Shown here in pieces: positions 16,901 through 64,000 of a DNA stretch of 64,000 bases. Under the pieces are notes generated by a model that searched no databases, was not told the origin of the DNA, and saw nothing but the letters and a program-made list of their open reading frames with translations. The translations under genes and the position numbers were made by a program. The DNA lies in the IMG/VR virus record IMGVR_UViG_2832220722_000003, positions 1-64,000 of that record; one strand, given 5' to 3'. The stretch's first letter is position 1, and the number at the start of each line of letters is the position of its first letter. The stretch is from a virus. Lineage: Duplodnaviria; Caudoviricetes.

Positions 16901-19900
16901 CGTCTTCTGCGGGCGCTGCGCCCTGGCCGCGCGCGCCACGCCCGCGCAAGGCCTTGTCCTCGCCCATCACCGCCACGCCCAACTCCAGCGCCTTGGATAG
17001 CGCATCGGTCGAATCCTGCTGCAGCCCCAGGATGGAGCGCAGGATGCGCACGAAGCCATCCCATGCCGTCTTGAGCGTGCTGCCGCTGGGCGCCTCCATC
17101 TTCCGCAGCGCGCGCTGGAATGCGGGATTGGTGAACGCTTCGGCCACGAACTCACCCACGTTCTTCATGCCGTACTGCCCGGCCGCGCCGCTCTGGCGCT
17201 TGACGTGCTCATACAGGCGGCGCATCTGCAGCGAAGCCAGCCCCTTGCGGTCCAGCGCGCGCAGCGTGGCCGCGTGGATCATCTCGTGCATGAAGATGTG
17301 CTCGGCCTGCGCCTGGGCGCCGGGCGTCAGAGTCAGCGTGTCGTTCTTGCGGCTGTACTTGGCCAGGAAGGTGAAGCCGTCAGCCCCACCCATGCTCTCC
17401 TGCGACAGTGCCACGGCGGGCGCGGCCCCGGTCTTCGTCAGCAGGCGTGCCACCTTCCGGTTGAAGGGGCTGCGCGAGGTGCCCGCGATCATGCGCAGGA
17501 TGCTCGCCGCATCGCGGCCCTCGCCCACCATGTCCATGATGGCGCGGTCGGTCGGCGTGCCGGTGCTGGTCCGGCTGGCGGCCCGCGCCTGGCCGCCCTT
17601 GTAGAAAATCCCCTTGGCCTGCTCGCCTACCAGTTGACGCGGCTGCCGTAGAGCTTGCTCCAGTAGTCCGGGTCTTTGGCTGCTCTCTGTACGTGCCAGG
17701 GTATTGAGGAGAATGCCTCTTTTAAGCGTTCGCTCCCCAGCGCCTGCCGCTCGCACTCGGCCAAACTTAGATGCCCACCCTCGTAGCACCTCATCAGAAA
17801 GGGGTGCGCCTTGAGAGTTGCGGAAGGTTCCGGTGGTGAAGTCGTAGCGGGCGCGGCGAAATTCGGGGACATGGGCGGCAATCGAGGCCAGCGAGACATC
17901 GATCATGCGCTGGATGTTGCCTATGGTATCGCCACCACGCCACTGCAGCGCAGGAATCCCGAGTTTTTCGTCACCCTCGACCTGGCGGGCGTGCGGCTCC
18001 ATGTGGTCGGTGCTGCCGTGCTTGATGGCCGACGAGATCATGGCCTCCAGGCGGCGGCGCATCGCAACGTCCGACAGCCCCGTAGGGTCGCCGATGAACA
18101 CCTTGCCCTCGCTGGCCGCGTAGTCCATCAGCGCGGCGTAGATGGCATTGCCGCCGTCGCCCTCATCGAGGCGGCTCACGTCCAGCCACAGCTCGTTGCC
18201 CTTCTCGTAGACGTAGAAATCGCGGCCCTTGGCGGTGCGGAACATCAGCTTGGTGTCGGCGCCGCTCTCCTGGCGCTCGTCCTCAGCCGTCACGTCGCCC
18301 ACGAACTTCACCGATGGGTCGATCTGGCGCAGCGCCGCCTCGGCGGAGCCAGCCCGCACCACCGGGTTCTGGAAAAGCTCGTCCACCGCGGCCAGCTCGG
18401 CCATCACCTCGGCCGCGAAGGTATCGGCAGGCGCGGCCCGCACGCCGGCATGCGCCTCGTCCGGATTCTCGTCGGCTTCGGCCTGGGCCTCGGTGGTGGG
18501 CTCGGCCTGCTGCTTGCCTTCCAGCAGCGTCACCAGCTCGGCCAGGCGCGCGCGCTTGGTGGCCAGCTCCTGCGCCTTGGGGAAGCCCTCGCCCTTGCGC
18601 GCTTCCAGCGCCGGCAGGTCGCGCTCGGCCTGGGCCATCTGGCGCGCCAGGTACTCGGGGTCGGTGCTCCTGGCGTTGCGGTAGATGTCATTCACCAGGC
18701 TCTGCAGCAGGCCGCGCAGATTGGTCGCGGTCAGGTCGCCAGTCTGTACGTTGCCCGAGTGGCTGGCCACCGTGCGATCGCCGTCCATCAGGGTCAGGCT
18801 CGGCTCGTAGACGGTCGCGCCGTCCTTCATCGGCATGGGCACCAGATCGCCCACCAGCTGGTAGCCCAGCATCTCGCCCAGGGCGAAATTCTGCAGTTCG
18901 TCCTGGCCCTTCATGGCCTGGTTCATCCGCTCTGCCGCCTCGCGCGCCGCGGCGGTGCGCTGGGTGAATACTTTGCCGCCCACGGTCGCGGCGAACGGGT
19001 CCACGTCACCCAGGGCGGCCGTGATCTGGTCGGAAATACCGTCCTTGGTCGTCACGCGCCGGCCGTTGATGGTCACGGCGTAGCGGGCCTTGTCGTTGCC
19101 GCCCTGCTGGTCCTTCACAATGGCCTCGGCCGCCGCAAATGCGTCCTTCACCGTGCCGTAGGCCTTGCCCTCGATGGTCACGCTGCGCGCGTCCTGCTCG
19201 GCTTCCAGCGCGGCGATGGCATCCTTGGCCTGGGTGCGGCGCTGCTCGGCAGCCTCGATGCGGCCCGGGTTGTCCTTGATGGCCTGGCGGGCGAAGCGAA
19301 GTTCGTCCTCCACGCCCCACATCTTGCGGCGGTGCGCGCGCTCCTGCAGCTCCAGGGTCTGGATTTCGGACTCGACCTTGACGCGCTCCAGCAGCATAGG
19401 ATTGCCCGAAGCCAGCGCAGCCATTTCCGCCATGCCCACAGCTTCCTCGTCCTCGAACTCCATCGTGAAGGCGCCGGTGTACTTGCGGATGCCGTTGATG
19501 GTGCGCAGCTTGGTCGCGTTCAGGTCCCACATCTTGGCGTCCGTGGTGCGCTCGGTCGCGTAGGCCAGCAGTTCCACCTCGAAGTCATCGCCGTACTTCG
19601 CCAGCAGCTCGTTGCCCTGGCGGATCGCGCGGCCCTCGCGCTGCTCGATGTCGCTGGGCTTCCAGGTCACGTCCACGTGGTGCAGGCCCACCACGCGCTG
19701 CTGCACGTTGGTGCCGGCGCCCATGCGCGGCGTCGAGCCGATGAGCACGCGCACCTTGCCGCCGTTCACGGCGTCGAACAGCGCGGCCTTCTGCTCGTCG
19801 TTGTTCGCCTCCTGCACGAACCGGATTTCGTCGGCCGGGATGCCCGCGGCGATCAGGTTGTCCTTGATCTGCTGGTAGGCGCTCCACGGCGAGGTCTGCG

Positions 19901-51941: not shown

Positions 51942-52015
51942 GGCCTTCGACTTCGAGAACGGGAACTGCAACAACAACAACCGCAACAACGAGTTCCGCG
52001 TCCGGCCCTTCCGCA
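51942..52015 (+). ncRNA. DGR template repeat (TR)
   Basis: G GCC TTC GAC TTC GAG AAC GGG AAC TGC AAC AAC AAC AAC CGC AAC AAC GAG TTC CGC GTC CGG CCC TTC CGC A; eight AAC codons; between avd and RT. Confidence 0.95.
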
Positions 52016-52034
52016 TATCCCACCGAGAGTTTCT

Positions 52035-53135
52035 ATGGATGCTGGTTATTCGCTCGAAAAGCTGGTGCAGGCTTACTTCGACTGCAGAAGGCACAAACGC
52101 ACCACGGCGAGCGCGCTGCGCTTTGAGCAGCGCCTGGAGTACAACCTAATGGAGTTGCATGAGGCCATGGAGGACGGTAGCTACCGCCCAGGGCCTTCTA
52201 TCTGCTTCGCTATCAGCAGGCCCAGGCCACGCGAGGTGTGGGCCGCGAGCTTCCCGGATCGCATCGTGCACCATATGGTCTACAACCAGATCGCCGAGCG
52301 CTTTCATCGTCGGTTCATCGCCGACTCGTGCGCGTGTATTCCCGGCAGGGGCACGCTGTACGGCGCCACGCGGTTGGAAGCCAAGGTGCGCAGCCTGACA
52401 CAGAACTGGAGCAGGCCGGCCTTCTACTTGAAGATCGACCTCGCGAATTTCTTTGTCTCCATCGACAAGCGGGTGCTCTGGCCCCTGCTGGTCGATCAAA
52501 TTCACGAACGCTGGTGGCGCGGTCTCACCAAGATCGTGCTGTTCCACGATCCGCGCGAGGACTATGAGCTGCGCGGCAGCGCGGAGACTCTGGCGAAGGT
52601 GCCGGAGCACAAGCGCCTGACGAACGCCGACCGCTACCACGGACTGCCCATCGGCAACCTGTCGTCTCAGTTTTTCGCAAACGTGCTCTTGAACGAATTG
52701 GATCAGCACATCAAGCACTACATCCGTGCGCGTCACTACACGCGCTACGTCGATGACATGGTGCTGCTGCACGAGTCGCCCGACTGGCTCAACGCCGCGC
52801 TGGCCGACATCAATGCATTCCTACCCAGCCTTGGCCTGGCGCTGAACCCGCGCAAGACGGTGCTGCAGCCGATCCATCGAGGCATCGACTACGTGGGACA
52901 GGTCATCCTGCCGTGGCGGCGCGTGACCCGGCGCCGCACGCTGCGCCAGGCCCTGGACCGGCTGGAGGACATGTCCGACGAGGACGTGTACACGAGCGGG
53001 AACAGCTACCTCGGTTTGGTGCGGCAGGCCAGCCATAGCCACCACGAGCAGGCCCTGATCTGCCGCGCGCTCCTCAAGCGAGGGCATGCCGTTGACGGCC
53101 TGCACCTTGAAAAGGCGTTTCGCAAACGCTGCTGA
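52035..53135 (+). CDS. DGR reverse transcriptase
   Basis: FPDRIVHH, LKIDLANFF, DGR-type GLPIGNLSSQFFAN, RYVDD, GIDYVG; intact 366-aa frame. Confidence 0.96.
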   Translation: MDAGYSLEKLVQAYFDCRRHKRTTASALRFEQRLEYNLMELHEAMEDGSYRPGPSICFAISRPRPREVWAASFPDRIVHHMVYNQIAERFHRRFIADSCACIPGRGTLYGATRLEAKVRSLTQNWSRPAFYLKIDLANFFVSIDKRVLWPLLVDQIHERWWRGLTKIVLFHDPREDYELRGSAETLAKVPEHKRLTNADRYHGLPIGNLSSQFFANVLLNELDQHIKHYIRARHYTRYVDDMVLLHESPDWLNAALADINAFLPSLGLALNPRKTVLQPIHRGIDYVGQVILPWRRVTRRRTLRQALDRLEDMSDEDVYTSGNSYLGLVRQASHSHHEQALICRALLKRGHAVDGLHLEKAFRKRC

Positions 53136-53160
53136 TAGCAGACCGACCGACCACCCACCC

Positions 53161-53183
53161 AAGCCCGCAGCAGCGGGCTTTTT
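53161..53183 (+). terminator. Intrinsic terminator after RT
   Basis: AAGCCCGC-AGCA-GCGGGCTTTTT. Confidence 0.75.
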
Positions 53184-53200
53184 CACGCATGGAGATTCAT

Positions 53201-53455
53201 ATGGATTTCGCGCACCCGGCCATGCAGGCCATGTCACGACGTGCCCACACCTGCGCCACAGCCCAACAGGCACGCATAAAGGGGGAGACCGCTGACCGCG
53301 AAGACGCGGAGTTACTGCGCTGGCTGCTGGACCAGGGTGTGGACTTCATCGGCCTGCGCGACGGCGGCGGTATCGACTGCGCGAACCATCCCGGTGGCGC
53401 TCACGCTGCGCTGATCGATGCACGCAGGGACCAGCAACAAGGAGAACACCCATGA
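53201..53455 (+). CDS. Hypothetical phage protein
   Basis: SD GGAG; DAELLRWL motif. Confidence 0.55.
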   Translation: MDFAHPAMQAMSRRAHTCATAQQARIKGETADREDAELLRWLLDQGVDFIGLRDGGGIDCANHPGGAHAALIDARRDQQQGEHP

Positions 53456-53682
53456 AAGAAGCCGCGTGGATCATCGCAGCCGTGCTCACGCTGGGCATAG
53501 GCGCCATCGCTGGCCATGAAGCAGAGGCCGACAAGCAAGACGCCGAAGCCATGGCAAGCCGCGAGTGGGCCGGCCGACAGGCCTGCGCCCCGGATGCCAC
53601 ACCAGAGTGGCTGGACGACAAGACGCACAGATGCTTGCGGAATCTGGATGACGCATTGAGCGTCGCGGGAGGCCGGCCGTGA
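53452..53682 (+). CDS. Small membrane-anchored hypothetical protein
   Basis: SD AAGGAG; N-terminal TM segment. Confidence 0.55.
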   Translation: MKEAAWIIAAVLTLGIGAIAGHEAEADKQDAEAMASREWAGRQACAPDATPEWLDDKTHRCLRNLDDALSVAGGRP

Positions 53683-53959
53683 ACCACCTGCGCGAATTCA
53701 TCCGGCTCTACCGCATCTACAGACGGATCAACAACCCCTTCAACGCCGCGCGCTATGCGTGGATCGTCGCTTGCGGGTAACGCATAGCGCGACACCAAAC
53801 ACGTGGCCGGAAAGCACGTGTGCGCCTGCGGCGCCTGGAAACTGGGAGAGCCGCAGCACCAGGCTGAGCACCTGCCAGCCGAGGATTCCGAGGGCTGCGG
53901 GCTCTAACCCCATCGCGCTCACACCCGCCCGCTCCCGCGGGCTTTTTTTTGGAGGCCGT

Positions 53960-54373
53960 ATGGCTCAAAAACTCATCAACCCCACCAAGAAGGTGGACCG
54001 AAAGTCGTTCGCCGACTTTCTCGCGGCCCAGCCCGACCTTGCTGACGAGCTGGCGGATGCGCTGAGCGACATGGTGCACGCCAGCACCGAAACCGGCAAG
54101 GTCAGCGAATTGACCTTGAAGGTGAAGCTCAAGCCCCTGGGCGGCACGTCCGGTCAGGTGGAGCTGGACACGGACGTGAAGGCCAAGCTGCCCCAGCCGG
54201 CGCGGGGCAAGACGCTCATGTTCGCCACGCCCAGCAACAACCTGCAGCGCGAGAACCCCAAGCAGCAGACGCTGGATGGCCTGCGCACGGCCGACCAGGA
54301 AGCCAGCGCGCAGACGGAACTGCGCCAGGCACCAAAGGATTCCAACGTCGAGCCCCTGCGCGCCGTCCACTGA
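53960..54373 (+). CDS. YfdP-like phage protein
   Basis: TGKVSELTLKVKLKP...MFATPSNNLQRENPKQ; usual partner of DUF2303; SD GGAGG. Confidence 0.7.
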   Translation: MAQKLINPTKKVDRKSFADFLAAQPDLADELADALSDMVHASTETGKVSELTLKVKLKPLGGTSGQVELDTDVKAKLPQPARGKTLMFATPSNNLQRENPKQQTLDGLRTADQEASAQTELRQAPKDSNVEPLRAVH

Positions 54374-54429
54374 TCCGGCCCCGACCGGCTCCCTTTCTTC
54401 CCTAACCGCCCATCAACAAGGAGTACCCA

Positions 54430-55272
54430 ATGGACCTTGCCAACATTCAATCCGAAGTCATCGCCAATGACGCCCTCGCGGCCTGCAATCAGGCTACCCG
54501 CCTAGTCGGCGCCACGCCCGTGGTGCTGCTGCCCGAGGGCTTTGAAGCGGAGAACCTGGAGAAGCTGCTGCCGTCCCCCACGCGCAAGCGCGGCACCACC
54601 GTCCTGAACGATGCCGAGTCGTTCATCGCCGTGGTGAACGATCAGCAGGACGGCAGCAGCACGCGCCTGTTCTCCACCATCGACCCGCCCACCTTCACGG
54701 CCGTGTTCAACCACCACGGCAGTGAGCCCGGCTGGGGCGACCACCGCGCGAAGTACAACGCGCCGCTGTCGCCTGAGTGGAAGGCTTGGACCGGCGCCAA
54801 TGGCGTCAAGCGCAACCAGGTGGACATGGCCCAGTTCCTGGAGGCCAACATGGTGGATGTGGCGTACATCGCGCCCAACGGCCCCGGCGAACCCGGCAGC
54901 CCGGACGGCGCGACGCTGCTGGAAATCTGCCGCACGCTCGAAGCCACCAAGAAGGTCAACTTCAAGAGCACCGTGCGCCTGCCCGATGGCTCTACCCAGT
55001 TCACCTACGACGAGGACGTGGCCGGCAGCGCCGTCAAGGGAACGATGGCCATTCCCGAGCAGTTCTCTATCGGCGTGCCGGTTTTCGAGAACGGCGAGAA
55101 GTACCGCCAGGACGTGCGTTTCCGCTATCGCATCCAGGAAGGCGGCAACCTGGTGATGTGGCTGGAGTTGATTCGCCCGCACAAGGTCATCGAGGACGCC
55201 GTGAAGCAGTTGCGCGCGCTGATCGGTGAGCAGACCGGCCTGCTCGTGCTCAACGGCGCACCGTCCGTCTAA
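54430..55272 (+). CDS. DUF2303 (YfdQ) family protein
   Basis: AVFNHH...GWGDHRA...SPEWKAW; IPEQFSIGVPVFENG; RFRYRI. Confidence 0.85.
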   Translation: MDLANIQSEVIANDALAACNQATRLVGATPVVLLPEGFEAENLEKLLPSPTRKRGTTVLNDAESFIAVVNDQQDGSSTRLFSTIDPPTFTAVFNHHGSEPGWGDHRAKYNAPLSPEWKAWTGANGVKRNQVDMAQFLEANMVDVAYIAPNGPGEPGSPDGATLLEICRTLEATKKVNFKSTVRLPDGSTQFTYDEDVAGSAVKGTMAIPEQFSIGVPVFENGEKYRQDVRFRYRIQEGGNLVMWLELIRPHKVIEDAVKQLRALIGEQTGLLVLNGAPSV

Positions 55273-55381
55273 GCAGCCCTCGCGCTGCTCCCATCAAGCC
55301 CGGCCCAGTGCCGGGCTTTTTCATGGGCTATGAGCACAGGGCGCCCCGTGCCTTGTGCTGATACCCCCTGAAAGGAGTTCC

Positions 55382-56023
55382 ATGGACCGAAGGCAGAAAG
55401 ACATCACCACCATGGCCGAGCACGCCGATCTGGCCGTGGTGAGCTGCGAGAAAAAGAACAGCCGCCAGTACGCCACGCTGCTGGCCGAGAACGGCGTCAA
55501 GCGCACGTTCTCCATCAGCATGGGCAGCCGCAGCGATCCGCGCGGCGACCTGAATGAGTTGGGCGCCATGAAGCGCTTTTCCCGCGAGAACCGCATTCCG
55601 GCCGCGCCCCAGGCGCAGCCCCTTCCATCCGCCCCTGAAACCACGCCACAACCCATGACCATGACCGCCGCAGCCACCAAGAAGACCATGACCATACCCG
55701 CCACCAAGAAGGCCGCAGTGCAGTCCCTTTCCCACGTCGATTTCTACCGAGTGTGCGAGTGGGTCAAGGCTCAGAACCTAGCCACCGTGCCCAACCTGGA
55801 AGCCCTGGCCATGCTGGCTGGCCAGTGGCTGCAGTCCGCCGTGCCCGAAGAAGAAATGAAGCTGGTGATGGACACCATCGGTGTGCGGGAGCCACCGCAC
55901 TGGGCCGAGCCTACCAACCCCCAGGCCATCCTGGCGCGCGAGCTGCTGACGGTCATGAAGAAGCTGGGCGAGGAACCGAGCACTGCGTTCAAGCGCCTGG
56001 CCGACTCGCTGCTGCCCGCCTGA
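55382..56023 (+). CDS. Hypothetical phage protein
   Basis: SD AAAGGAG before the ATG at 55382. Confidence 0.65.
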   Translation: MDRRQKDITTMAEHADLAVVSCEKKNSRQYATLLAENGVKRTFSISMGSRSDPRGDLNELGAMKRFSRENRIPAAPQAQPLPSAPETTPQPMTMTAAATKKTMTIPATKKAAVQSLSHVDFYRVCEWVKAQNLATVPNLEALAMLAGQWLQSAVPEEEMKLVMDTIGVREPPHWAEPTNPQAILARELLTVMKKLGEEPSTAFKRLADSLLPA

Positions 56024-56083
56024 GCCCCACCGATCCACTACCAAGGCCCGCCGCGCGCGGGCCTTTTGCATTCAGAGGCCGCC

Positions 56084-56269
56084 ATGCGCCAAACCAAAGA
56101 AGTCCAACCCTACAAGCCGCCCAGCCACTGCTACCAGGGCGACGAGTTGAAGCCGAACCCGGGCATGCCCGCCGAGCGCCTGTACGCCTTCACCCTGCCC
56201 AGCCGCAATGGGAAGTGGCTGCATTACCCGGACGGGCGCTGCGAGCTATTTCCCCTCGCCAATCAATGA
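56084..56269 (+). CDS. Small hypothetical phage protein
   Basis: SD GAGG; YQGDELKP...AFTLPSR motif. Confidence 0.5.
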   Translation: MRQTKEVQPYKPPSHCYQGDELKPNPGMPAERLYAFTLPSRNGKWLHYPDGRCELFPLANQ

Positions 56270-56296
56270 GTGTTCGCTAGCTTTTAAGGAGCAATC

Positions 56297-56836
56297 ATGA
56301 CCATCGCAATCGAAAACCCAATTGCCTGGATCGACGCCCTGGGAGGATCGTCCGCGAGCTTTGAAATCTCATCCCACGCGGCAGTCGGCCGCGATGACAT
56401 GGAGGGGTGGGGCACTTCCTTGACCCACCTGAGCCGGCCGGAGGCCGAAATTCGCCGCCACATCGAGCGCGAGAACGGGCAGGTGCTGATGTTGAACATC
56501 GGCCTCCAGCCCGTGCACCCGATCACCAGCACACAGCGCGTGCGCTGGGGTTCGACGCTCAAGGTGGGTGAGGGCCGCTACGTGCGCGCCCATGGCGACT
56601 GCGCCGATTTCCCGACCGCGTTCCAGCAGGTGAATGCCCATCAGCATGCCAGCCGCGTGATTGGTTCGCTGACCTGGTGGCAGGAAGGCGAAAAGGATTC
56701 GTGGGTGAGTTGGATCGGCGCGGCACGGCTGGAGGCCATGCGCATGGCCCACGGACAGGAAGGCTGGTATTTCAGCGTCCACGGCGAAGCGCCCACGCTT
56801 GAAGAAGCCGCGCTCCTGGCATCGATCCACGGATAG
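56297..56836 (+). CDS. Hypothetical phage protein
   Basis: SD TAAGGAG; 179-aa ORF. Confidence 0.65.
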   Translation: MTIAIENPIAWIDALGGSSASFEISSHAAVGRDDMEGWGTSLTHLSRPEAEIRRHIERENGQVLMLNIGLQPVHPITSTQRVRWGSTLKVGEGRYVRAHGDCADFPTAFQQVNAHQHASRVIGSLTWWQEGEKDSWVSWIGAARLEAMRMAHGQEGWYFSVHGEAPTLEEAALLASIHG

Positions 56837-57035
56837 CACCAGCCCGCCCCGCGCGGGCTTTCTTTTTTTGGAGTTGCCATGAGCACCACCCAACCCCAGG
56901 GGCAGCAGCCCCAGCCCATCAAGCGCTGCGCCAGCTGCGGCGCTCCCGTCCACAAGGAACCCACGCCAGGCGAAGGCCTGCCCTGCGGACATTGAAAGGC
57001 CGCCATGACCACCAACACCCCATGAAAGGACCACT

Positions 57036-57392
57036 GTGACCATCGCATCCATTCGCTTCGCCGACTTGCCGGCCCTCGGAGCACCGCTTGATAGCGGCGA
57101 GTTCGCCGGCATTACCACCCAGCCAGACGGCACGCACTGCGCCGTCGTGAAGCTCCCCGAGCAGGGCAGCGGCTTGACGCACGGGAAGGCCGTGGCATGG
57201 GCCGAGAAGCTGGGCGGCGTGCTGCTGGTTGCGAACCTGAAAGGCCTGGAGCCCGAATGGCACTGGCTGGCCGAGACACATGGCGCCTCCTACGCCTGGG
57301 ATTGCTACTTCGGCTACGGCAGCCAGAGCAACATCCGCAAGAGCTACGAGGGCTCGGCTGTTGCCGTCCGCTTGATTCCTCTTATTTCTTGA
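57036..57392 (+). CDS. DUF1566-like protein with an orphan VR-like C-terminus (apparent internal deletion)
   Basis: GEFAGITT; WHWLAE; YAWDCYFGYGSQSNIRKSYEGSAVAVR; the LP(S/T)xxE motif is missing (GGVLLVAN). Confidence 0.75.
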   Translation: MTIASIRFADLPALGAPLDSGEFAGITTQPDGTHCAVVKLPEQGSGLTHGKAVAWAEKLGGVLLVANLKGLEPEWHWLAETHGASYAWDCYFGYGSQSNIRKSYEGSAVAVRLIPLIS

Positions 57393-57796
57393 ACCCTTTT
57401 TTTCTTTTTGGGGAAGCACCCATGCCCACAGAGACCACTGTTATCCAGATCCCAGCAACCACCATCGAGCTGCAGACCGGCGAGCGCTACGCCGGCCCCG
57501 TTCTCGACGAATCGGGCGCCATCAAGCACCACCTGATCCTGCTGTCCGCGCGCCCGGCCAAGCGCGCACCCTGGCAAGCGCAAATGGATTGGGCCGCCAG
57601 CGTCGGCGGCGACCTGCCCAGCCCGCAGGAGCAGGCCCTGCTCTTCGCCAATTGCCGCGATGCCCTGCACGAGGCATGGTGCTGGTCGAACAAGGAATAC
57701 AAGAGCAACACCTCCTACGCCTGGTTTTGCAACTTCTACTACGGCGGCCAGAGCCGCCACCGCAAGAGCTACGAGGGATCGGCTATTGCCGTCCGC
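57285..57796 (+). repeat. Pair of 87-nt VR-like repeats (57285-57371 and 57710-57796)
   Basis: 74/87 identical; 12 of 13 mismatches are at codon positions 1-2. Confidence 0.85.
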
Positions 57797-57835
57797 AGGC
57801 AGTGCATCGCCAAGGCAGCGCCAGGGTCCGCATGA
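57422..57835 (+). CDS. DUF1566-like protein with an orphan VR-like C-terminus
   Basis: GERYAG; WAASVGGDLPSPQEQALLFAN; WCWS; YAWFCNFYYGGQSRHRKSYEGSAIAVR. Confidence 0.82.
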   Translation: MPTETTVIQIPATTIELQTGERYAGPVLDESGAIKHHLILLSARPAKRAPWQAQMDWAASVGGDLPSPQEQALLFANCRDALHEAWCWSNKEYKSNTSYAWFCNFYYGGQSRHRKSYEGSAIAVRRQCIAKAAPGSA

Positions 57836-57871
57836 ACCGCCGTGTTATGCGGCAATTTTGAAAGGAAGAAC

Positions 57872-58081
57872 TTGAACACTGACACCAACAACGCCAAGCC
57901 GCTGCTCCTGTTGCAGCAAGCCTTCGATGCGCTGGAGGCAACCGCCGATAGCGACATTGAGCATTTCGAGGACGAGCAGGAAGAGGCCGAGGCGGTTCCG
58001 GCGCAGTACGCCTGCCGCAAGATCATGGAAGCTATGGACCTGCTGCGGGCTGCGAACAGGGAGCGCCTACTTGGCGCATAA
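57872..58081 (+). CDS. Cassette-like hypothetical gene A
   Basis: TTG start after AAAGGAAG; stop TAA lies within the attC core CGCATAAC. Confidence 0.6.
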   Translation: MNTDTNNAKPLLLLQQAFDALEATADSDIEHFEDEQEEAEAVPAQYACRKIMEAMDLLRAANRERLLGA

Positions 58082-58134
58082 CGCCTGAGATAACCGGCGC
58101 GCTTTAGCGCGTCCGGTTGATTGAAACGTTAGCA
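58075..58134 (-). mobile_element. Integron-type attC site (59-base element)
   Basis: Minus strand TGCTAAC-GTTTC-AATCAACC-GGACGCGCTAAAGCGCGCC-GGTTATC-TCAGGC-GTTATGC: R'', 5-nt spacer, L'', stem-loop, L', R' with two extrahelical bases. Confidence 0.8.
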
Positions 58135-58154
58135 ATTACCCCGCGGAGGATGAC

Positions 58155-58427
58155 ATGCAGGTGTTGAGCAACACGATACAGACGGCGCGCAAGCATTACT
58201 CGTGCGACGCATGCCAAGTGTTTTTGCAGTCGAACTACGGGCGCAGCGATGTGTCCGCGGACGACTGGCTGGTAATCGAAGGCGCACGAGCTGATCGCTG
58301 GAAGATCACTCCGAACAGCAAATACCGCAAGCTGACGATCAAGGACGGCCCGGATATTCTGACCGTGCGAAATCGGCTCGATGTTGAGGCTGTATGCCAT
58401 CGGCATTATCTGTTTGATGAGTGCTAA
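58155..58427 (+). CDS. Cassette-like hypothetical gene B (CxxC Zn-binding)
   Basis: SD GGAGGA; ARKHYSCDAC; stop TAA lies within TGCTAAC. Confidence 0.65.
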   Translation: MQVLSNTIQTARKHYSCDACQVFLQSNYGRSDVSADDWLVIEGARADRWKITPNSKYRKLTIKDGPDILTVRNRLDVEAVCHRHYLFDEC

Positions 58428-58457
58428 CGCCGATTAGGCGACAAACAGGAGCATCCC

Positions 58458-58769
58458 ATGAGCAGTGACCAACAGACCACGAAGAAGACCGTGCTCGTGA
58501 CGATCACAAAGGAAATCGAGGTCGAAATCAAGAACGACATGCTGACGCCGGAAGCGCTCGCGGAGTTCAGCAAGTTTTTCTACGAGGCGTGTAGCCCGGA
58601 CGAAATGTTTGCCAACGCCGCGCAGCAGATCGCACGCTTTGAGCCGAGCTTCGTTGAGGGCCTTGGCCCGTGCCGACCCGCGCACAGCAAGGACGATGCC
58701 GTTGTGCGCTATCAAGAAATCAGCGAAGACGTTGAGGCGGAAGTGAAGGAGCCAAGCCATGCAGGCTGA
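58458..58769 (+). CDS. Hypothetical acidic phage protein
   Basis: SD AGGAG; 103 aa. Confidence 0.6.
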   Translation: MSSDQQTTKKTVLVTITKEIEVEIKNDMLTPEALAEFSKFFYEACSPDEMFANAAQQIARFEPSFVEGLGPCRPAHSKDDAVVRYQEISEDVEAEVKEPSHAG

Positions 58770-59337
58770 ACAACAAGGCGCAGCAGCGCCGAACCTGCTG
58801 CCATGCCCGTTTTGCGGAGCACCGGCGCATGGCTATGCCATCGCACCGCACGAACACTCGGACGCGCTCCGAAAGCTCGTGCCGGAACTGCCGGCCCATT
58901 CCGGGAGCTACGTCATTGAGGGGCAGTGCGATTGCGGCTCCGGGATGATCGGCGCCACCGAAGATGAAGTGGTTGCTCGCTGGAACCACCGCGCCCAGCC
59001 CACGCCACCGGCCGCAGCGCCGAGCGATGCGATGGTGGATTCCTACCTGCGCGCCCAGCGTGAGACGGTGGAGGCGGTTGATCGCAAATTTGGCCACCCC
59101 AACGGCAAGGCGCCATCGCATCTGCACCCCGTGCGCGAGGCATGCCGCGCCGGGCTTGCTGCGGCTCTGGCCGTGGCGCCACCGGCTGTAGTGGAGCTGC
59201 TGACAGATGAGCAGATCACCGCGATCTGGGCGGCGAAGCCCCGTTACCACGCCGAGCCCATCGGTTATACCGACCTGGAGTTCGCCCGCGACATCGAAGC
59301 CGCCCACGGCATCACAGGAGGCAAGCCATGCAGCTGA
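58759..59337 (+). CDS. Lar-family restriction alleviation-like protein with a C-terminal extension
   Basis: LLPCPFCG...CDCG...EDEVVARWNHRA. Confidence 0.65.
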   Translation: MQAEQQGAAAPNLLPCPFCGAPAHGYAIAPHEHSDALRKLVPELPAHSGSYVIEGQCDCGSGMIGATEDEVVARWNHRAQPTPPAAAPSDAMVDSYLRAQRETVEAVDRKFGHPNGKAPSHLHPVREACRAGLAAALAVAPPAVVELLTDEQITAIWAAKPRYHAEPIGYTDLEFARDIEAAHGITGGKPCS

Positions 59338-59825
59338 ACCGCGCACAGCGCCGCGCGGCCAGGCGCGCCAAGCCCCCGCCGTACGGCGCCGGACACATCA
59401 CCCTGCCGATCACCATCCGGTTTGGTGCGTCTGAGGAAACCGCGCTGATGCAGCAACCCATCGTTGCGGCCCAGCGGCTGCACGATGGGACTGGCAACGA
59501 GGGGGATTGGCATGCCGTCACGCTGCGCCTGAACTGGGCGCGGCTGCTGAACAAGGCCAATTTCGAGAACGGCGAGGCCTACTTCGCCGAGGCTCAGGAC
59601 GCGATGCGCGCCGTCAAGTCCCGGGCCGAGCGGTACGGCACCTGGAGCATGTCCACGCCCGAGCACGAGTGCACCAACCAGGCGCTGGTGCTGTGCAACC
59701 AGATGCAGACCATGTGCACGCGGCGCGAGCTGCGCGCTTCGCTGGAGGCGGTGTACCAGGCCAACGAGTACCAGGCCAAGGTGCGAGCGATCCAGGATCG
59801 GATGGATGGGAGAGCCGGCGCATGA
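59328..59825 (+). CDS. Hypothetical phage protein
   Basis: NRAQRRAAR N-terminus; coupled to both neighbours. Confidence 0.65.
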   Translation: MQLNRAQRRAARRAKPPPYGAGHITLPITIRFGASEETALMQQPIVAAQRLHDGTGNEGDWHAVTLRLNWARLLNKANFENGEAYFAEAQDAMRAVKSRAERYGTWSMSTPEHECTNQALVLCNQMQTMCTRRELRASLEAVYQANEYQAKVRAIQDRMDGRAGA

Positions 59826-59927
59826 GAGGCTTTTTTCTCTTTTTCGCGGGGATAGACCTGTGCTTTGGCAACCACGCCATTGCCGGTCTCATGTTGATGC
59901 TGGCCGCAATATCGTAAGGAGCACGCC

Positions 59928-60359
59928 ATGAGCACTGACACAGGCCACAAGCGGCTGCTGGCGCCAAGCGTGTTTTCCTTCGAGGTGTGGGCTGTCGGTA
60001 GTCCGCATCGCCGCATCATCAATGCGCGATCCAGCGGCGCAGCGCGCTACGACTACCTGTTGGACGTGCGCGACTGCTGGCCTGATGCGAAGTACACGGA
60101 CATGCGAGCCAGGAAGATCGGTCCGGCCCACACCAGCGAAGCCTTCTTGCGCACGGCACGGTATCGCGGCATGCCCGATCTTCGGTGCGGCGAAGCCGTC
60201 AAGGTGAGCGGCCGGTCTGGAGTGGTCGTGGGCCACAACGACAGCGCGAACTTCGACGTGCTGTTCGACCAGGGGACCGACTGGGCTGGCGCCGTGCTCA
60301 ACGTGCACCCCAGCGAATTGCGCCGCGCTGCTGCAGTCGTGGGCGAGAAGACGCCCTGA
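59928..60359 (+). CDS. Hypothetical phage protein
   Basis: SD TAAGGAG; GVVVGHNDSANFDVLFD...NVHP. Confidence 0.65.
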   Translation: MSTDTGHKRLLAPSVFSFEVWAVGSPHRRIINARSSGAARYDYLLDVRDCWPDAKYTDMRARKIGPAHTSEAFLRTARYRGMPDLRCGEAVKVSGRSGVVVGHNDSANFDVLFDQGTDWAGAVLNVHPSELRRAAAVVGEKTP

Positions 60360-60430
60360 GCCCCAACACGATTTCAACAAGCACCCTAGCCCCGCCACCG
60401 TGCGGGGCTTTTTCTTTTGGAGCCCCCAAC

Positions 60431-60772
60431 ATGATTACCCAGGAAACCGCCGCCCTCATATTCCATGCCTACCGCGAAATTGAAGCCGGACAGAAGCTGC
60501 TGGATGACATGAAGGCCATTCGGAGCCGCGAAGGCCTGGACAGGCACGCGCCGACGATCAAGGACGCATTCGGCAGGCCGCAGCACCTGCAACTCGGCAT
60601 CCCCTCGGGAGAGAACTCGCACCGCATCTTGGGCGTGTCCCCGTTCCTGGCCGAGTCCGTCATCCGCGCTCACATCGAGAACAAGCGCGCGGAACTCGCC
60701 GAGATTCAGGAGCGCGCCCGCATCGAACTGCAGGGGGATCGGCAGCCCCCAGCCGCTGGAGAGCCTGAATAA
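60431..60772 (+). CDS. Hypothetical phage protein
   Basis: SD GGAG before the ATG at 60431. Confidence 0.6.
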   Translation: MITQETAALIFHAYREIEAGQKLLDDMKAIRSREGLDRHAPTIKDAFGRPQHLQLGIPSGENSHRILGVSPFLAESVIRAHIENKRAELAEIQERARIELQGDRQPPAAGEPE

Positions 60773-60835
60773 GCAATCCCGCCCCGATGCATCAACGCCC
60801 GCCGCGCGCGGGCTCTTTTTTTTGAAAGCCCCGAC

Positions 60836-61483
60836 ATGCCCCACATCCACCTGGCCGATGGCACCGTGCACTACCTCGATGCCCACAGCGCGGACCTGAA
60901 CACCTACAACATCGAGACGCTGGCGCACCACCTGGCGCTCATCAACCGCTTCACCGGAGCCACCTACCGGCCGTACAGCGTGGCAGAGCACAGCCTGTTG
61001 TGCGCCGACATCGCGGCCGCGCGCGGACTGCCCGTGGTGGCGCAGCTCGCATGCCTGATGCACGACGCCCATGAGGCCATCACCGGCGACGCCAGCACGC
61101 CCGTGAAATGGGCTCTGGGCGAGCCCTGGGAGAGATTCGAGGGGCCGCACGCACGCGCGCTGCGTGCCCACTTCGGACTGCGCACGGTGTTCTCCGGCTA
61201 CGGCCGCGATATCAAGCTGGTGGACTACATCGCCCTGGCCACCGAGCGCCGCGACCTGCTGGGCTTCGACCCTGAGCGGCATGCGCCCTGGCCGCAGTTG
61301 GATACGCCGGGCCAGATCGTCGAGCCTGCGGCCGGCAGCCTCAACGACTATCGGCGAGTGGGCGCCGCCTGGAGCCACTGGAAATCGCTCTTCTGCCATA
61401 GGTTTCACGACCTGCGCGCACAGATTCAGGCGGCCGATGCGCAATTCATCGTCGCGGCGACCGGCGAGTCGCGTGCGGCCTGA
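60836..61483 (+). CDS. HD-domain phosphohydrolase (YfbR/YfdR-like deoxynucleotidase)
   Basis: NRFTG...YSVAEHS...LMHDAHEA...D...LATERRDL. Confidence 0.85.
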   Translation: MPHIHLADGTVHYLDAHSADLNTYNIETLAHHLALINRFTGATYRPYSVAEHSLLCADIAAARGLPVVAQLACLMHDAHEAITGDASTPVKWALGEPWERFEGPHARALRAHFGLRTVFSGYGRDIKLVDYIALATERRDLLGFDPERHAPWPQLDTPGQIVEPAAGSLNDYRRVGAAWSHWKSLFCHRFHDLRAQIQAADAQFIVAATGESRAA

Positions 61484-61541
61484 AAGTCGAACGATCAACC
61501 ACAGCCCCGCGCGAGCGGGGCTTTCTGTTTCTGGAGAGTCT

Positions 61542-61601
61542 ATGAACCAAACCCGCCTTGGCTCGTTGATCGAGGCCGTATTGAGGGCAGTGGCCACATG
61601 A
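61542..61601 (+). pseudogene. Truncated remnant of a small phage membrane-protein gene
   Basis: Good SD and MNQTRLGSLIEAV start that I recognise from a common phage family, but it ends after 19 codons at the next gene. Confidence 0.35.
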
Positions 61602-62233
61602 TCGCGGCGCTGTACGTTGAAGCCGGCGGTGCGTATTTCGGCCTGCCTGGCGTTGACCCATGGGACGAGGCGCGTGACGCGCGGAAGTACGCAGGCCCAT
61701 GGCCCGTGGTGGCGCACCCGCCATGCCAGCGCTGGGGCCGGTACTGGCACGGCGCGCCCCGCAAGCCACACCAGCATCGCCTGGGCGAAGACGGCGGCTG
61801 CTTCGCCGCGGCGCTGACTGCAGTGCGCAACTACGGTGGCGTGATCGAGCACCCGAAGGACTCGCACGCGTGGCGCTATTTCGGCCTGACGCCCCCCCCG
61901 GCGGCCGGCGGATGGGTGCCAGCCGATGCCTTCGGCGGCTGGACGTGCTGCGTATGGCAAGGCCACTACGGCCATTTCGCGGGCAAGGGCACATGGCTCT
62001 ACGCGGTGCCGAGCGATCCGGCTCTGCTGCCCGCGCTGACCTGGGGCCAGAGCGACAGCGGACCGACGCCCGAGATGATCGAGCGCTACGGCTACGCGAA
62101 GGCGCGACGAGTCGGGCGCATGGCCCTGGTCGGCGGCAAGGACAAGACCCGTATCCGCAACGCCACACCGCCCGAGTTCCGGGACCTACTGATCGGCATC
62201 GCCCGCAGCGCCGCGCGCGAGCACGTCACATGA
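61598..62233 (+). CDS. C5 cytosine methyltransferase-like protein lacking a clear motif I
   Basis: VVAHPPCQ (motif IV), VIEHP (motif VI-like), RNATPPEF (motif X-like); no FxGxGG. Confidence 0.6.
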   Translation: MIAALYVEAGGAYFGLPGVDPWDEARDARKYAGPWPVVAHPPCQRWGRYWHGAPRKPHQHRLGEDGGCFAAALTAVRNYGGVIEHPKDSHAWRYFGLTPPPAAGGWVPADAFGGWTCCVWQGHYGHFAGKGTWLYAVPSDPALLPALTWGQSDSGPTPEMIERYGYAKARRVGRMALVGGKDKTRIRNATPPEFRDLLIGIARSAAREHVT

Positions 62234-62310
62234 CCGCCCCGCCCGACTGGCACGCCGCAGATAACAACCCCGAGCCCCGCCCGCGCGGGGTTTTTTCATT
62301 GGAGGGCCAC

Positions 62311-63381
62311 ATGGCCGAGAGCACGAAGATCGAATGGGCGGATCACACATTCAACCCCTGGGAAGGTTGCCAGAAGGTAGGACCAGGCTGCGACAACTGC
62401 TATGCCGAGAACCGCAATGCCCGCTTTGCCGGCGGCCAGGCAATCAACTGGGGACCGGGCGCACCGCGGCGCCGCACGAGCGCCAGCAACTGGAACAAGC
62501 CCCTCGCCTGGAACAAGAATGCCGATGCCTTCATGGCCGCCCACGGCCGGCGCCAGCGTGTTTTCTGCGCAAGCCTGGCGGATGTGTTCGACAACGCGGT
62601 GGATCCGCGGTGGCGTGCGGACCTGTTCGCGCTCATCCTGGCCACGCCGGCATTGGACTGGCTGCTGTTGACGAAGCGCATTGGCAACGTGGTGCCGATG
62701 CTGGCCGAATTGCGCCACGGCAACGACCCCGACCTGCCTGTGCTGGACATGATGCCGCTGCCCAATGTGTGGATCGGCGTCACCATCGTGAACCAGGAAG
62801 AAGCCGACAGAGACATCACCAAGCTGATCGAGGTGCCTGCCGCCAAGCGCTTCCTGTCGGTTGAGCCCATGCTGGGCGAGTTGGACATCATGAAGTGGCT
62901 GCAGCCGTACACATGCGCCGATTGCGGCCACCACGGCAGCGTCAACGACTGCGGACCGGATGGCTGCAAAAAGTGCAGCGAGGAAGCCGCCTTCGATAGC
63001 GGCTACACATGCAAGGCATGCGGCGCTGATGACCAATCGGCAAGGGCGTCGTGTCCGAACTGCGGTAGCCATCGCTCCTACGAGGAAGATAACGGCTTCA
63101 TCTGGTCAAGCGAGCAGCGGCTGATTGACTGGGTGATTTGCGGCGGCGAGAGCGGTCCCGGCGCGCGGCCCATGAGCCCCGACTGGGCGCGCTGTCTCCG
63201 CGACCAATGCCAAGCAGCTGGCACGCCCTTTCTCTTCAAGCAATGGGGAGAGTGGCTGCCCGACAACCAGAACCCAGCGATTGCCGGCCCGTCCGGCGAC
63301 ACGCAGGGTATTCGGGTCGGCAAGAAGGCGGCCGGCCGCCTGCTCGATAGCCGCACCTGGGATGAATTCCCGGCGCTATGA
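62311..63381 (+). CDS. DUF5131 (phage Gp37/Gp68) family protein with a four-CxxC insertion
   Basis: TKIEWADHTFNPWEGCQKVGPGCDNCYA; LLLTKR; FLSVEPML; DWVICGGESG; FLFKQWG. Confidence 0.9.
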   Translation: MAESTKIEWADHTFNPWEGCQKVGPGCDNCYAENRNARFAGGQAINWGPGAPRRRTSASNWNKPLAWNKNADAFMAAHGRRQRVFCASLADVFDNAVDPRWRADLFALILATPALDWLLLTKRIGNVVPMLAELRHGNDPDLPVLDMMPLPNVWIGVTIVNQEEADRDITKLIEVPAAKRFLSVEPMLGELDIMKWLQPYTCADCGHHGSVNDCGPDGCKKCSEEAAFDSGYTCKACGADDQSARASCPNCGSHRSYEEDNGFIWSSEQRLIDWVICGGESGPGARPMSPDWARCLRDQCQAAGTPFLFKQWGEWLPDNQNPAIAGPSGDTQGIRVGKKAAGRLLDSRTWDEFPAL

Positions 63382-63623
63382 GCGTCACCTACAGCACGGT
63401 AGACCTGGCCGAAGACCGGGCCTACCTGTCCCACCACTTCAACTGCCCCACATGCTGCGCCGCTGGGCGAACCCAGGGACGCATTGCGCGCTGCCCGGAT
63501 GGGCAAGCGCTGTGGGACGCCTACGAGGCGGCCGTTCTCGCCCGCGATCAAGCCGAGCGCGAGGCGCATGTGGCGCGCCTGAAATCCCTGAATACCCCGA
63601 ATCGAAAGGGACCACACCAATGA
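63378..63623 (+). CDS. Small Cys/His-rich hypothetical protein
   Basis: HHFNCPTCC...RCPDGQALW; coupled to both neighbours. Confidence 0.6.
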   Translation: MSVTYSTVDLAEDRAYLSHHFNCPTCCAAGRTQGRIARCPDGQALWDAYEAAVLARDQAEREAHVARLKSLNTPNRKGPHQ

Positions 63624-63883
63624 CTACCAGCCCCACCATGAGCCTGGTCGAAGCAGCCGACACGCTCAAGATGCACCCCCACACCCTGGAGAAACTGATC
63701 CGCGCGGGCGAAATAGCGGCAGGCAAGCCCGGCCGCTCCTACGTGCTGCTGACGCGCGACGTGCTGGCCTACGCCGAGAAGATCATCCTGCGGGACACAG
63801 CCGACCGCATCCGCGCGGCGCGGGCGGCATCACCACAGCGCGGCCGAAAGATCGCTACCCCGCAGGTTCGCGTAGCGCATTAG
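63620..63883 (+). CDS. xis: Excisionase-like HTH protein
   Basis: MSLVEAADTLKMHPHTLEKLIRAGEIAAGKPGRSY; convergent with and overlapping the integrase. Confidence 0.75.
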   Translation: MTTSPTMSLVEAADTLKMHPHTLEKLIRAGEIAAGKPGRSYVLLTRDVLAYAEKIILRDTADRIRAARAASPQRGRKIATPQVRVAH

Positions 63884-64000
63884 CATGCGCTGACTCTTGT
63901 GGCCCGTGATTTTCATGATCTGAGTTTCCGAGAGCTTCGTGCGCTCAAACAGGCGGCTTGTGGCCTCGTGCCGCAGGTCGTGAAACTTCAAGTCCTTGCA
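63830..64000 (-). CDS. int: Tyrosine integrase, C-terminal 56 aa (partial)
   Basis: My translation: CKDLKFHDLRHEATSRLFERTKLSETQIMKITGHKSQRMLMRYANLRGSDLSAALW*; HxLRH, GH and catalytic Y present. Confidence 0.9.
   Translation of the reverse strand, partial: CKDLKFHDLRHEATSRLFERTKLSETQIMKITGHKSQRMLMRYANLRGSDLSAALW

Follow-up and report, generated by a model that had tools for sequence, protein, structure and literature searches.

A 600-base integron piece, made up of two cassettes, one intact attC site and an end that resembles an integron entry site, lies among the early genes of a prophage in the window analysed here, a 64,000-nucleotide stretch of the provirus record IMGVR_UViG_2832220722_000003 (79,217 bp). 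The piece is probably the attI-proximal end of an integron cassette array which has become part of the accessory gene block of a temperate phage, and it looks partly decayed, with one attC intact and most of cassette A's own attC lost. The original prediction of an integron-type array without an integron integrase is borne out by a match to an attC covariance model (R1), by comparison with arrays adjacent to IntI genes and by AA/C borders that recur elsewhere, and the integron-like character of the stretch is confirmed and far beyond chance. Its features are listed in Table 1.

Table 1. Features of the integron-like block (window coordinates)
Feature	Position	Strand	Description and basis
Block	57836-58443	+	In order: truncated attC, cassette A (ORF A), intact attC, cassette B (ORF B), attI-type stretch
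attC remnant of cassette A	57836-57850	+	End of L box, 5-nt spacer, 3' box GTTATGC (57844-57850)
ORF A	57872-58081	+	69-aa acidic protein; alignment A1, 94 homologue clusters
Intact attC	58076-58134	+	+ is the recombinogenic (bottom) strand; R1 match, fold, box sequences
attC 5' box	58076-58082	+	GCATAAC
attC L box and stem	58089-58102	+	Preceded by the spacer between 5' box and L box
attC loop	58103-58106	+	
attC 3' arm	58107-58122	+	Stem 58107-58111, extrahelical T58112, 58113-58118, extrahelical G58119, 58120-58122
attC spacer and 3' box	58123-58134	+	Spacer 58123-58127, 3' box GTTAGCA 58128-58134
Cassette B	58082-58427	+	Own attC, 20-nt leader with SD sequence, ORF B
ORF B	58155-58427	+	90 aa; phrog_13613 at 92.4 bits; conserved CxxC...CxxH; alignment A4
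Putative attI-type simple site	58422-58443	+	Box TGCTAAC 58422-58428, then 15 nt (58429-58443) ending GATTAGGCGACA

The block is situated inside a run of rightward accessory genes and is flanked by phage genes, with the phage integrase gene about 5.4 kb away at the right end of the prophage. The stop codon TGA (57833-57835) of an upstream DUF1566-like gene abuts the attC remnant at 57836, and ordinary phage genes resume after the attI-type site. As had been predicted, each unit holds one promoterless ORF whose TAA falls in the core site (58079-58081 for ORF A and 58425-58427 for ORF B). Because both ORFs are co-directional with the neighbouring phage genes and have no promoter of their own (no sigma-70-like promoter in 56800-59400, 0.5 expected), they are presumably read from phage transcripts, that is, with the phage operon as originally proposed.

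attC sites have the consensus ends RYYYAAC and GTTRRRY, with conserved AAC and GTT, and follow a rule for their extrahelical bases (PMC5027507, partial text). The 5' box of the candidate site departs from this consensus once (A at position 3) and its 3' box at positions 6-7, while AAC and GTT are exact. The first structural scan found arrays but gave false positives at long spacings, for which reason it was replaced by R1, a surrogate for the IntegronFinder model that was built from only seven IntI-adjacent attCs. On the plus strand R1 matches 58076-58133 with 37.7 bits (E 1.4e-7), against 16.8 bits on the minus strand, and across all 79,217 bases it has no match besides this site. The stretch 58075-58134 folds into an outer stem of 5-7 bp, an internal loop of 8+8 bases and a GC stem of 11 bp that carries a bulged T (-16 kcal/mol as DNA; z -3.6 for the plus and -4.1 for the minus strand), which gives the palindromic arrangement of R box, central spacer, L box and loop. 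On the plus strand the 3' arm, opposite AAC, carries the extrahelical T58112 and G58119, with six paired bases between them and three after the G. In the arrays of Azonexus and Methylobacter, the strand that codes for intI has the same layout. With its end boxes, fold, extrahelical bases and covariance match, 58076-58134 is by its sequence a genuine attC site, and the crossover is predicted between A58081 and C58082 by the positional rule in the same partial text (PMC5027507). The canonical attC that had been proposed on the minus strand (58134-58075), with its extrahelical G and T on the plus strand, is thus upheld by R1, with which both strands were scored. Since the plus strand has the architecture of a bottom strand (AAC at the 5' side, extrahelical bases on the opposite arm), it is the recombinogenic strand that codes for ORFs A and B. 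Sequences 80-90% identical to this attC are present in 11 of 301 genomes of one bacterial order.

A GC-rich stem-loop between two genes of one operon might instead be a phage RNA or DNA element, acting as a terminator or processing site or representing a REP-like repeat, with cassette ends that are complementary by chance, and short inverted repeats are indeed common here (58 pairs in a 1.1-kb stretch around the block). This explanation is scarcely credible, because the stem is not followed by a T run, the hairpin is absent from the results of the terminator scan, there is no second copy in the 79 kb, and the site scores with a model built from integron attCs; the borders of the shared DNA, moreover, fall at AAC triplets. 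A scan of 52000-64000 against Rfam (E up to 1) gave four weak, unrelated matches, none of them on the hairpin. The attC family itself seems to be absent from Rfam.

The complementarity of the cassette ends also lies far above the random level. GTTATGC (57844-57850) is the exact complement of GCATAAC (58076-58082), a pair that is also listed as a 12-nt inverted repeat with 92% complementarity, and GTTAGCA (58128-58134) is the exact complement of TGCTAAC (58422-58428), as the original prediction had stated for both units. In 15 arrays, 40 of 73 adjacent units have a start box that is complementary to the end box at every one of the four variable positions, whereas the two boxes within a site do so in 10 of 89 cases and randomly paired boxes in 8.6%; both units of the window are complementary at four of four positions. 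It is this context that makes the box pairs of the window significant, since a single 8-mer pair within 600 bp is not rare in itself.

The borders are best defined by cassette B, which occurs in four other distinct contexts at five loci (L036, L037, L038 and L039, with L040 a duplicate of L039). Across these contexts homology breaks exactly at AA/C at both ends of the cassette (58081/58082 and 58427/58428). Compared with L036-L039, only 18-21 of 40 nucleotides are identical upstream of 58082 and 23-25 of 40 downstream of 58427, whereas the attC and leader are identical at 69-73 of 73-74 nucleotides and ORF B at 235-267 of 273, and the hexamer that precedes the crossover C is different in every context. 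In L039, a true chromosomal integron whose IntI scores 468.3 bits on TIGR02249, cassette B is second from attI, and its attC and leader are identical to those of the window at 73 of 73 positions. Cassette B is therefore a discrete unit of gene and attC which is found in different arrays and is bordered at the crossover.

Cassette A is found in seven viral contigs and in the Azonexus chromosome, and its own attC varies between these places; the Methylobacter genome locus L011 is the same contig as the viral L002. ORF A is the only stretch of 52000-64000 that is common to the seven viral contigs. Its alignment contains eight sequences with 72-94% identity to the protein of the window, and every one of its 94 homologue clusters is hypothetical, with no match in Pfam or PHROG. 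The start codon is TTG here and ATG in the relatives, and the base A at 57872 is found in all four metagenome runs. The remnant upstream of ORF A has no 5' box, stem or loop, but in L003, L004 and L007 the same spacer and box form the end of a complete hairpin site that immediately precedes ORF A, and homology with the relatives in cassette form (L002, L003, L004, L007, L012) begins between 57816 and 57836. The hairpins upstream of cassette A differ between L002, L003/L007, L004 and L012, while the window, L004 and L007 have a similar attC downstream of it, so that the history of cassette A taken alone does not fit the AA/C border model; with both hairpins partly conserved, it was cassette B that settled the crossover.

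In four wastewater or sludge sequencing runs from four studies, contigs cover only 57808-58470 and break at 57836-39, 58075-86, 58115-24 and 58443. Contigs of three runs (X1, X5 and X6) diverge at 57836-57839, one contig of X1 diverges at 58443, and a 14-kb contig of X6 matches only from 58448 onward. For X1 and X5 the remainder of 57400-58900 has little or no contig cover, which is a lack of cover and not an absence, and the sequencing-run shares of 0.07-0.09 carry no evidence on habitat beyond the four runs examined.

At the right end of the block, the first six bases of the TGCTAAC box belong to cassette B. The 16 bases 58428-58443, the only part of such a site that is kept here, are identical at 13 positions to the attI between the first cassette and IntI in L039, which is the one independent IntI-adjacent example, L040 being its duplicate. 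Elsewhere the motif is found at array ends only (L038, L041 and L045), and a strict attI-type pattern occurs in none of the 301 genomes of the order, in which the reversed control pattern was found once. The position is not that of an attI beside intI, as the record contains no intI and the phage gene ORF C starts 15 bases after the motif. The short end would presumably have an attI-type function.

These decayed features could mean that the block entered once, by illegitimate or homologous recombination with another phage array or a host integron, and is now ordinary phage DNA that is inert to any integrase. The truncated left attC, the 16 remaining attI-type bases, outer ends (57836 and 58443-58447) that are not AAC crossover points, the record without IntI and the surrounding phage genes, with the integrase gene about 5.4 kb away, all agree with such a relic. 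It is nevertheless unlikely, given that the remaining attC is intact and identical in 73 of 73 bases to a copy in a live-looking integron, that cassette B is still flanked by two apparently usable crossover points, and that four metagenome studies of the present day contain these cassettes in abundance and in differing linkage.

A complete integron would have a TIGR02249 integrase gene next to the array, and none is present beside the block. In the 79,217-bp record the best TIGR02249 score is 19.4 bits (20.1 bits for the integrase protein itself) against a cut-off of 265, and the sole recombinase is the phage tyrosine integrase (PF00589, 75.8 bits), in accordance with the original prediction. 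That this enzyme, or another phage recombinase, moves the units instead of an integron integrase is very improbable. Its gene is located about 5.4 kb downstream, and an attI-like stretch in L011, a contig of a Methylobacter phage, is immediately followed by a phage integrase gene; the integrase gene of the window, however, is not adjacent to the array and is far below the IntI cut-off, none of the five viral records searched, with the arrays L003-L007, has a recombinase above this cut-off (best G004, 23.5 bits), and the sites are of the same family as those beside true IntI. Both genomes with ORF A encode IntI above the cut-off, as do 127 of the 301 sampled genomes of the order that contains one cassette A host (125 of 299 when the unpublished G301 and G033 are left out). 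That a host IntI acts in trans on the prophage is plausible from the presence of cassette B in a true integron and from these IntI counts.

The predicted reversal of the genes relative to classical cassettes, antisense to attC, holds as well. It is the bottom strand of attC that carries ORFs A and B, not the top strand, where a promoterless, Pc-expressible cassette gene would be, and both ORFs are reversed with respect to the cassettes beside IntI in Azonexus. In all five IntI-adjacent arrays (L021, L023, L029, L028 and L039) the R1 strand is the intI strand. The phage-like relatives that lack IntI form arrays of up to at least 13 attCs (at least 13 sites in 5.2 kb in L003), and carry DNA methyltransferases (L003, L007 and L046) and HNH endonucleases as cargo. 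Gene sense was assigned by Pfam matches and by an SD-plus-ORF rule, which is crude and gives no call for 26 of 71 units. Among 42 units in the relatives without IntI, 26 have bottom-strand genes, 4 top-strand genes and 12 no strand call, with the proviso that ORF A or ORF B served to locate these loci, a selection which gives every such array one reversed unit or more; among 29 units in IntI-adjacent arrays the genes are top-strand in 12, bottom-strand in 3 and without a call in 14. A strand statistic based on GC3 was discarded; it had the right sign for all nine high-GC test genes and for one of two low-GC genes, the other, the integrase gene of L011, being placed on the wrong strand, and it proved unreliable for cassettes of 45-58% GC, miscalling most Azonexus cassettes. 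By structure and mobility, as read from sequence, units A and B are cassettes whose gene sense is reversed.

The units were probably made and moved by integron-integrase chemistry, that is, by single-strand recombination of the folded bottom strand with a cut between A and C in AAC, a mechanism that the AA/C borders of the shared DNA support indirectly. The bottom strand here is the plus strand and also the coding strand, for which reason each gene lies downstream of its own attC and would run antisense to Pc. Further gain, loss or swapping would need a host IntI in trans, acting at 58081/58082 or 58427/58428, and cassette A would no longer be able to exit alone.

Close relatives of the prophage did not emerge from the searches made, and hence no empty site or alternative cassette content can be presented. 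A distant blastn search of 57000-59400 against 50,697 phage records returned one 134-nt match, to the DUF1566-like gene; this gene and ORF B have no relatives among the viral contigs searched, ORF C has one distant and uninformative relative (L010), and the DNA search of the order's 301 genomes yielded nothing beyond cassette A, in Azonexus, and some short matches to the attC.

Phages with attC sites and with IntI-less clusters of them (CALINs), both temperate and virulent, have already been described (Qi et al., 2023; PMC9892861), so the system is not wholly undescribed, as the original prediction had suggested it might be. In that report, 17 CALINs were detected in 10,705 genomes, the figures considered show arrays of about 2-3 attCs, one prophage CALIN has its own attI, DNA methyltransferases are among the cargo, and IntI1 recombined five of six tested phage attCs, so that a host IntI can act on such sites (PMC9892861). 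The phages share with the loci described here attCs, cassettes without IntI and methyltransferase cargo (as in L003, L007 and L046), whereas arrays in the present relatives run to 13 sites or more and have their genes mostly on the bottom strand. This was the only report on phage attCs found in the literature on phage arrays, and its text, in the sections considered, does not report reversed gene sense, although its supplementary CALIN list may bear on novelty; no publication on reversed gene sense was found, and what stands of the novelty claim is the combination of consistently reversed genes and an attI-type end, which we did not find in print. By default, IntegronFinder 2 calls a CALIN where two or more attC sites occur with no IntI close by (PMC9024848, partial text); the single intact attC in 79,217 bases falls short of this, while the older one-site rule would accept it.

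The sedentary chromosomal integrons of Betaproteobacteria (Azonexus L021 and contig L039) have attCs of the same family (R1 matches, 80-100% identity), the same crossover triplet, complementary start and end boxes, and cassette B. In contrast to the window, with its 16-base attI-type stub, bottom-strand genes and no intI, they combine intI with a complete attI and with genes that are mostly top-strand. Chromosomal integrons also hold some reverse-oriented cassettes, for example toxin-antitoxin genes with their own promoters, which form a minority inside arrays. In these too the gene is opposite to the usual sense and the attC keeps the polarity of the array, but in the phage-like loci whole IntI-less arrays are reversed, and in the window the genes have no promoter and are co-directional with phage genes. 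A few exceptions to promoterless cassettes are acknowledged (PMC5027507, partial text). Phage morons and mosaic modules resemble the window units in being small accessory genes that are inserted between conserved genes of the phage and that unrelated phages exchange; morons, however, have their own promoter and terminator and no site-specific borders, while the units have attC borders and box complementarity.

Integrons are usually viewed as bacterial devices for gene capture, and recent work has shown that anti-phage defence is frequently encoded in their cassettes. Genes of phage type (phrog_13613, HNH endonucleases, DNA methyltransferases) that are packaged as integron cassettes, and lined up without an integrase in the early regions of phages, would place the phage side in the same currency. 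Tentatively, and with the odds somewhat against it, some phages of wastewater and freshwater Proteobacteria may keep their own pool of "attC-first", reverse-sense cassettes, shuffled by host IntI between early operons equipped with attC arrays and attI-type ends, with cassettes also parked silently, antisense to Pc, at the attI ends of integrons (cassette B in L039). If so, one recombinase would serve a two-way exchange of genes between integrons and phages, and gene sense would mark the partner that is served. If host IntI acts on the arrays, phages would gain a site-specific way to swap accessory genes, possibly including counter-defence genes, and the swapping would be induced by the same SOS signal as the prophages. 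As a simple mark in the sequence, the reversed gene sense could be used to locate phage-serving cassettes in integron and metagenome data.

From about 54.4 to 63.4 kb of the window, which covers the first 64 kb of the 79,217-bp IMG/VR provirus record, all plausible genes lie on the + strand, and among them are two integron-cassette-like units, cassettes A and B, named after the ORFs that they carry. The two tandem genes directly 5' of the cassettes (57036-57835) are DUF1566/Lcl_C-like by a weak Pfam match (18.4 bits). Between them and an ORF ending at 56836 sits a strong terminator-like hairpin with a T run (56841-56869, +; seven pairs, six of them GC), so that transcription of the genes beyond it, the cassettes among them, would depend on read-through or another promoter. 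No promoter-like site was found inside the cassette block, and no integron integrase (IntI) gene in the phage record.

Predicted features of the cassette block and its surroundings (window coordinates)
Feature	Position	Strand	Remarks
Gene block	about 54.4-63.4 kb	+	includes phrog_210, two DUF1566-like genes, Lar-like protein, dNMP phosphatase
End of gene block			excisionase-like ORF, then phage integrase on - strand
Left end	57836-50		last 15 bases of a site, directly after stop codon of DUF1566-like gene
ORF A	57872-58081	+	69 aa
Hairpin site (attC)	58076-58134		59 nt, follows ORF A
ORF B	58155-58427	+	90 aa
Right end			15 bases after TGCTAA/C, ending GATTAGGCGACA; then ribosome-binding site of ORF C
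ORF C	start 58458

When folded (z -3.6 and -4.1), the hairpin site has an outer stem and, beyond an 8+8 internal loop, an inner GC stem that carries a bulged T. Real integrons were sought by scanning genome contigs with an ORF A alignment, which led to an Azonexus chromosome and a Methylobacter MAG, both encoding integron integrases above the TIGR02249 cut-off (507, 484 and 473 bits); the DNA adjoining their intI genes holds arrays of hairpin sites built like that of the window. Six Azonexus sites and one Methylobacter site, each read on the intI-coding strand, served to train R1, a surrogate attC covariance model whose structure comprises R box, L box and stem. R1 matches 58076-58133 with 37.7 bits on the + strand, for an E of 1.4e-7 across the full record, and with 16.8 bits on the - strand; elsewhere in the 79,217 bases it has no match at E up to 1. 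It also matches on the intI strand in all five arrays that adjoin an IntI gene or gene fragment (L021, L023, L029, L028 and L039), and a DNA search of 301 Azonexus-order genomes recovered the window site in 11 of them (80-90% identity). The original prediction of an attC at this position is thus borne out by the covariance model: as judged from sequence and fold, the hairpin is a bona fide attC whose + strand is the recombinogenic bottom strand.

The integrase recombines the folded bottom strand, its cut falls between A and C of the AAC triplet in RYYYAAC, and the arm facing this triplet carries the extrahelical bases (Nivina et al., 2016; PMC5027507). On the window's + strand, AAC stands at the 5' end of the site (58080-58082) and the 3' arm carries T58112 and G58119, both unpaired; six paired bases separate the two, and three follow the G. 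The real Azonexus sites have the matching layout on the intI strand, with their cassette ORFs on the other strand. ORF A has 94 homologue clusters and recurs, with 72-94% identity, in seven other loci, not all of which lie within a cassette; ORF B corresponds to phrog_13613 (92.4 bits), and its Cys/His positions are conserved across 12 aligned sequences. Both are real + strand genes and, since this is also the attC's bottom strand, their coding sense is the reverse of that in the usual cassette, in agreement with what had been predicted. ORF A starts with TTG at 57872 in the window, with ATG there in all four mapped metagenome runs and also in the viral relatives that retain the cassette form. 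The protein clusters of ORF A and ORF B (P0001 and P0098) each have more than 100 members, solely on contigs shorter than 1 kb, as would be expected from repeat-rich arrays that break assemblies, or from cassette amplicons.

The predicted complementarity of the unit ends was likewise found, at four of four variable positions in both window units, compared with one of four for the attC's own two boxes, a pattern expected if each array site is a hybrid of two cassettes. In 15 arrays, full complementarity at these positions holds for 40 of the 73 adjacent units (39 of 61 among those shorter than 700 nt); boxes belonging to one site reach it in 10 of 89 cases and random pairs in 8.6%. Cassette A is the sole DNA of window 52000-64000 common to seven viral contigs, and it could not fix the crossover because the flanking hairpins are only partly conserved. 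For cassette B, scanning metagenomes with an alignment of ORF B yielded 15 loci, of which L036, L037, L038 and L039 were compared (L040, from another record, duplicates L039). The attC and leader 5' of ORF B are identical to the window at 69-73 of 73-74 positions, the six bases preceding the C of AAC vary from context to context, and the 40 nt farther upstream agree at 18-21 positions; past TGCTAA/C a different site follows in each context, with 23-25 of 40 bases identical. These limits of homology define the cassette B unit as 58082-58427, attC first and gene second, and both of its borders fall at AA/C on the + strand, matching what bottom-strand IntI chemistry would predict. Contigs from four wastewater or sludge runs, belonging to four studies, cover just 57808-58470 of the 1.5 kb compared and break or diverge at 57836-39, 58075-86, 58115-24 and 58443, which lends independent support to the proposed unit borders.

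Viral contigs with ORF A carry arrays of R1 sites, 29 of 30 matches (E up to 0.02) lying on the strand of ORF A. The largest phage-like array among the loci examined, L003 (1591-6777 of a 34,978-bp viral contig), has 13 R1 sites within 5.2 kb; all of them share one strand, the units measure 200-500 bp, and many units have start and end boxes that are exactly complementary. Five of the ORF A viral records, the L003 contig among them, were searched and yielded no IntI; one of the five is a 61-kb genome with terminal repeats that is rated complete. The related arrays have phage-like flanks: L042 has AAA_24 and Sipho_Gp157, L007 an N6/N4 methylase, L046 and L003 a C5 methylase, L003 and L004 HNH, and L041 an ORF that by eye looks endolysin-like. 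Under a crude SD-plus-ORF rule for gene sense, the 42 units of IntI-less arrays gave 26 bottom, 4 top and 12 without a call, the loci having been found via ORF A or ORF B, so that one reversed unit per array is due to selection and the other units are independent. The 29 units of arrays adjoining IntI gave 12 top, 3 bottom and 14 without a call, and in L032 all three units are top. Cassette B and the unit next to it in L039 account for two of those three bottom calls; L039 is a locus in a 742-kb metagenome contig where cassette B is second from the array end and the following gene scores 468.3 bits on the IntI model. By these features L039 (3922-5719) is a true integron sharing cassette B with the window. 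Its two attI-nearest cassettes (cassette B and one with an 85-aa ORF) have their genes on the intI strand and face the expected cassette promoter Pc, while those farther from attI keep the usual sense. L022, an Azonexus contig that also bears ORF A about 64 kb away, has at about 16970-18108 another integron integrase gene, the second one (507 bits, one in-frame TAG); the region in front of this gene presumably resembles a class 1 attI region, and the scan found no adjoining attC array.

At the left end of the block, the bases retained are those that terminate a full hairpin in L003, L004 and L007. At the right end, 13 of the 16 bases of 58428-58443 agree with the attI of L039, which lies between array and IntI gene, and the match keeps the register of the crossover. 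Among the examined loci, this motif occurs at array ends only (L038, L041, L045, the window and L039/L040), and the strict pattern was found in none of the 301 sampled genomes. The right end is cautiously regarded as a putative attI-type simple site, with one independent IntI-adjacent example and 16 bases kept. In a phage contig of the Methylobacter MAG (L011 10207-11434, equal to L002 from 4207 onward), ORF A precedes a stretch of about 50 bases with homology to the integron attI of the same MAG (chromosomal integron L023), after which comes a phage-type integrase gene on the same strand; either an attI was captured or a phage attachment region overlaps attI-like sequence. Run X6 has a 14-kb contig that may be related to the phage backbone while lacking the cassette block: it agrees with the window at 58448-58476, where ORF C starts, and at 58746-58792, the two matches are separated by 191 other letters, and its DNA upstream of 58448 is unrelated. 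Neither outer end of the cassette block is a crossover point, and the block thus probably entered the phage not through IntI but through general or illegitimate recombination with another array.

The ends of both cassettes bear an IntI signature in their sequence. ORFs A and B would be read together with the phage + strand genes, and a host IntI could excise cassette B or insert new cassettes at 58081/58082 or 58427/58428, cassette A now presumably being fixed in place. Among genomes of the candidate host order, IntI is common: 127 of 301 have it (125 of 299 without two unpublished ones).

The original prediction of a real attC, reversed cassettes and no IntI largely stands, although attCs in phages were already known: three complete integrons, one In0 and 17 CALINs (attC clusters without IntI) have been reported in 10,705 phage genomes, and phage attCs were recombined by IntI1 (Qi et al., 2023; PMC9892861). 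In the literature passages searched, no text on reversed-gene-sense arrays in phages was found. Cassettes facing Pc are stated never to have been observed (Nivina et al., 2016); that statement concerns whole cassettes inverted along with their attC, which those of the window are not. Taken at the level of sequence, the window locus is best described as an integron fragment that lies in a prophage and has reverse-sense cassettes of phage type and a putative attI-type end, and as a member of a wider set of IntI-less phage arrays.
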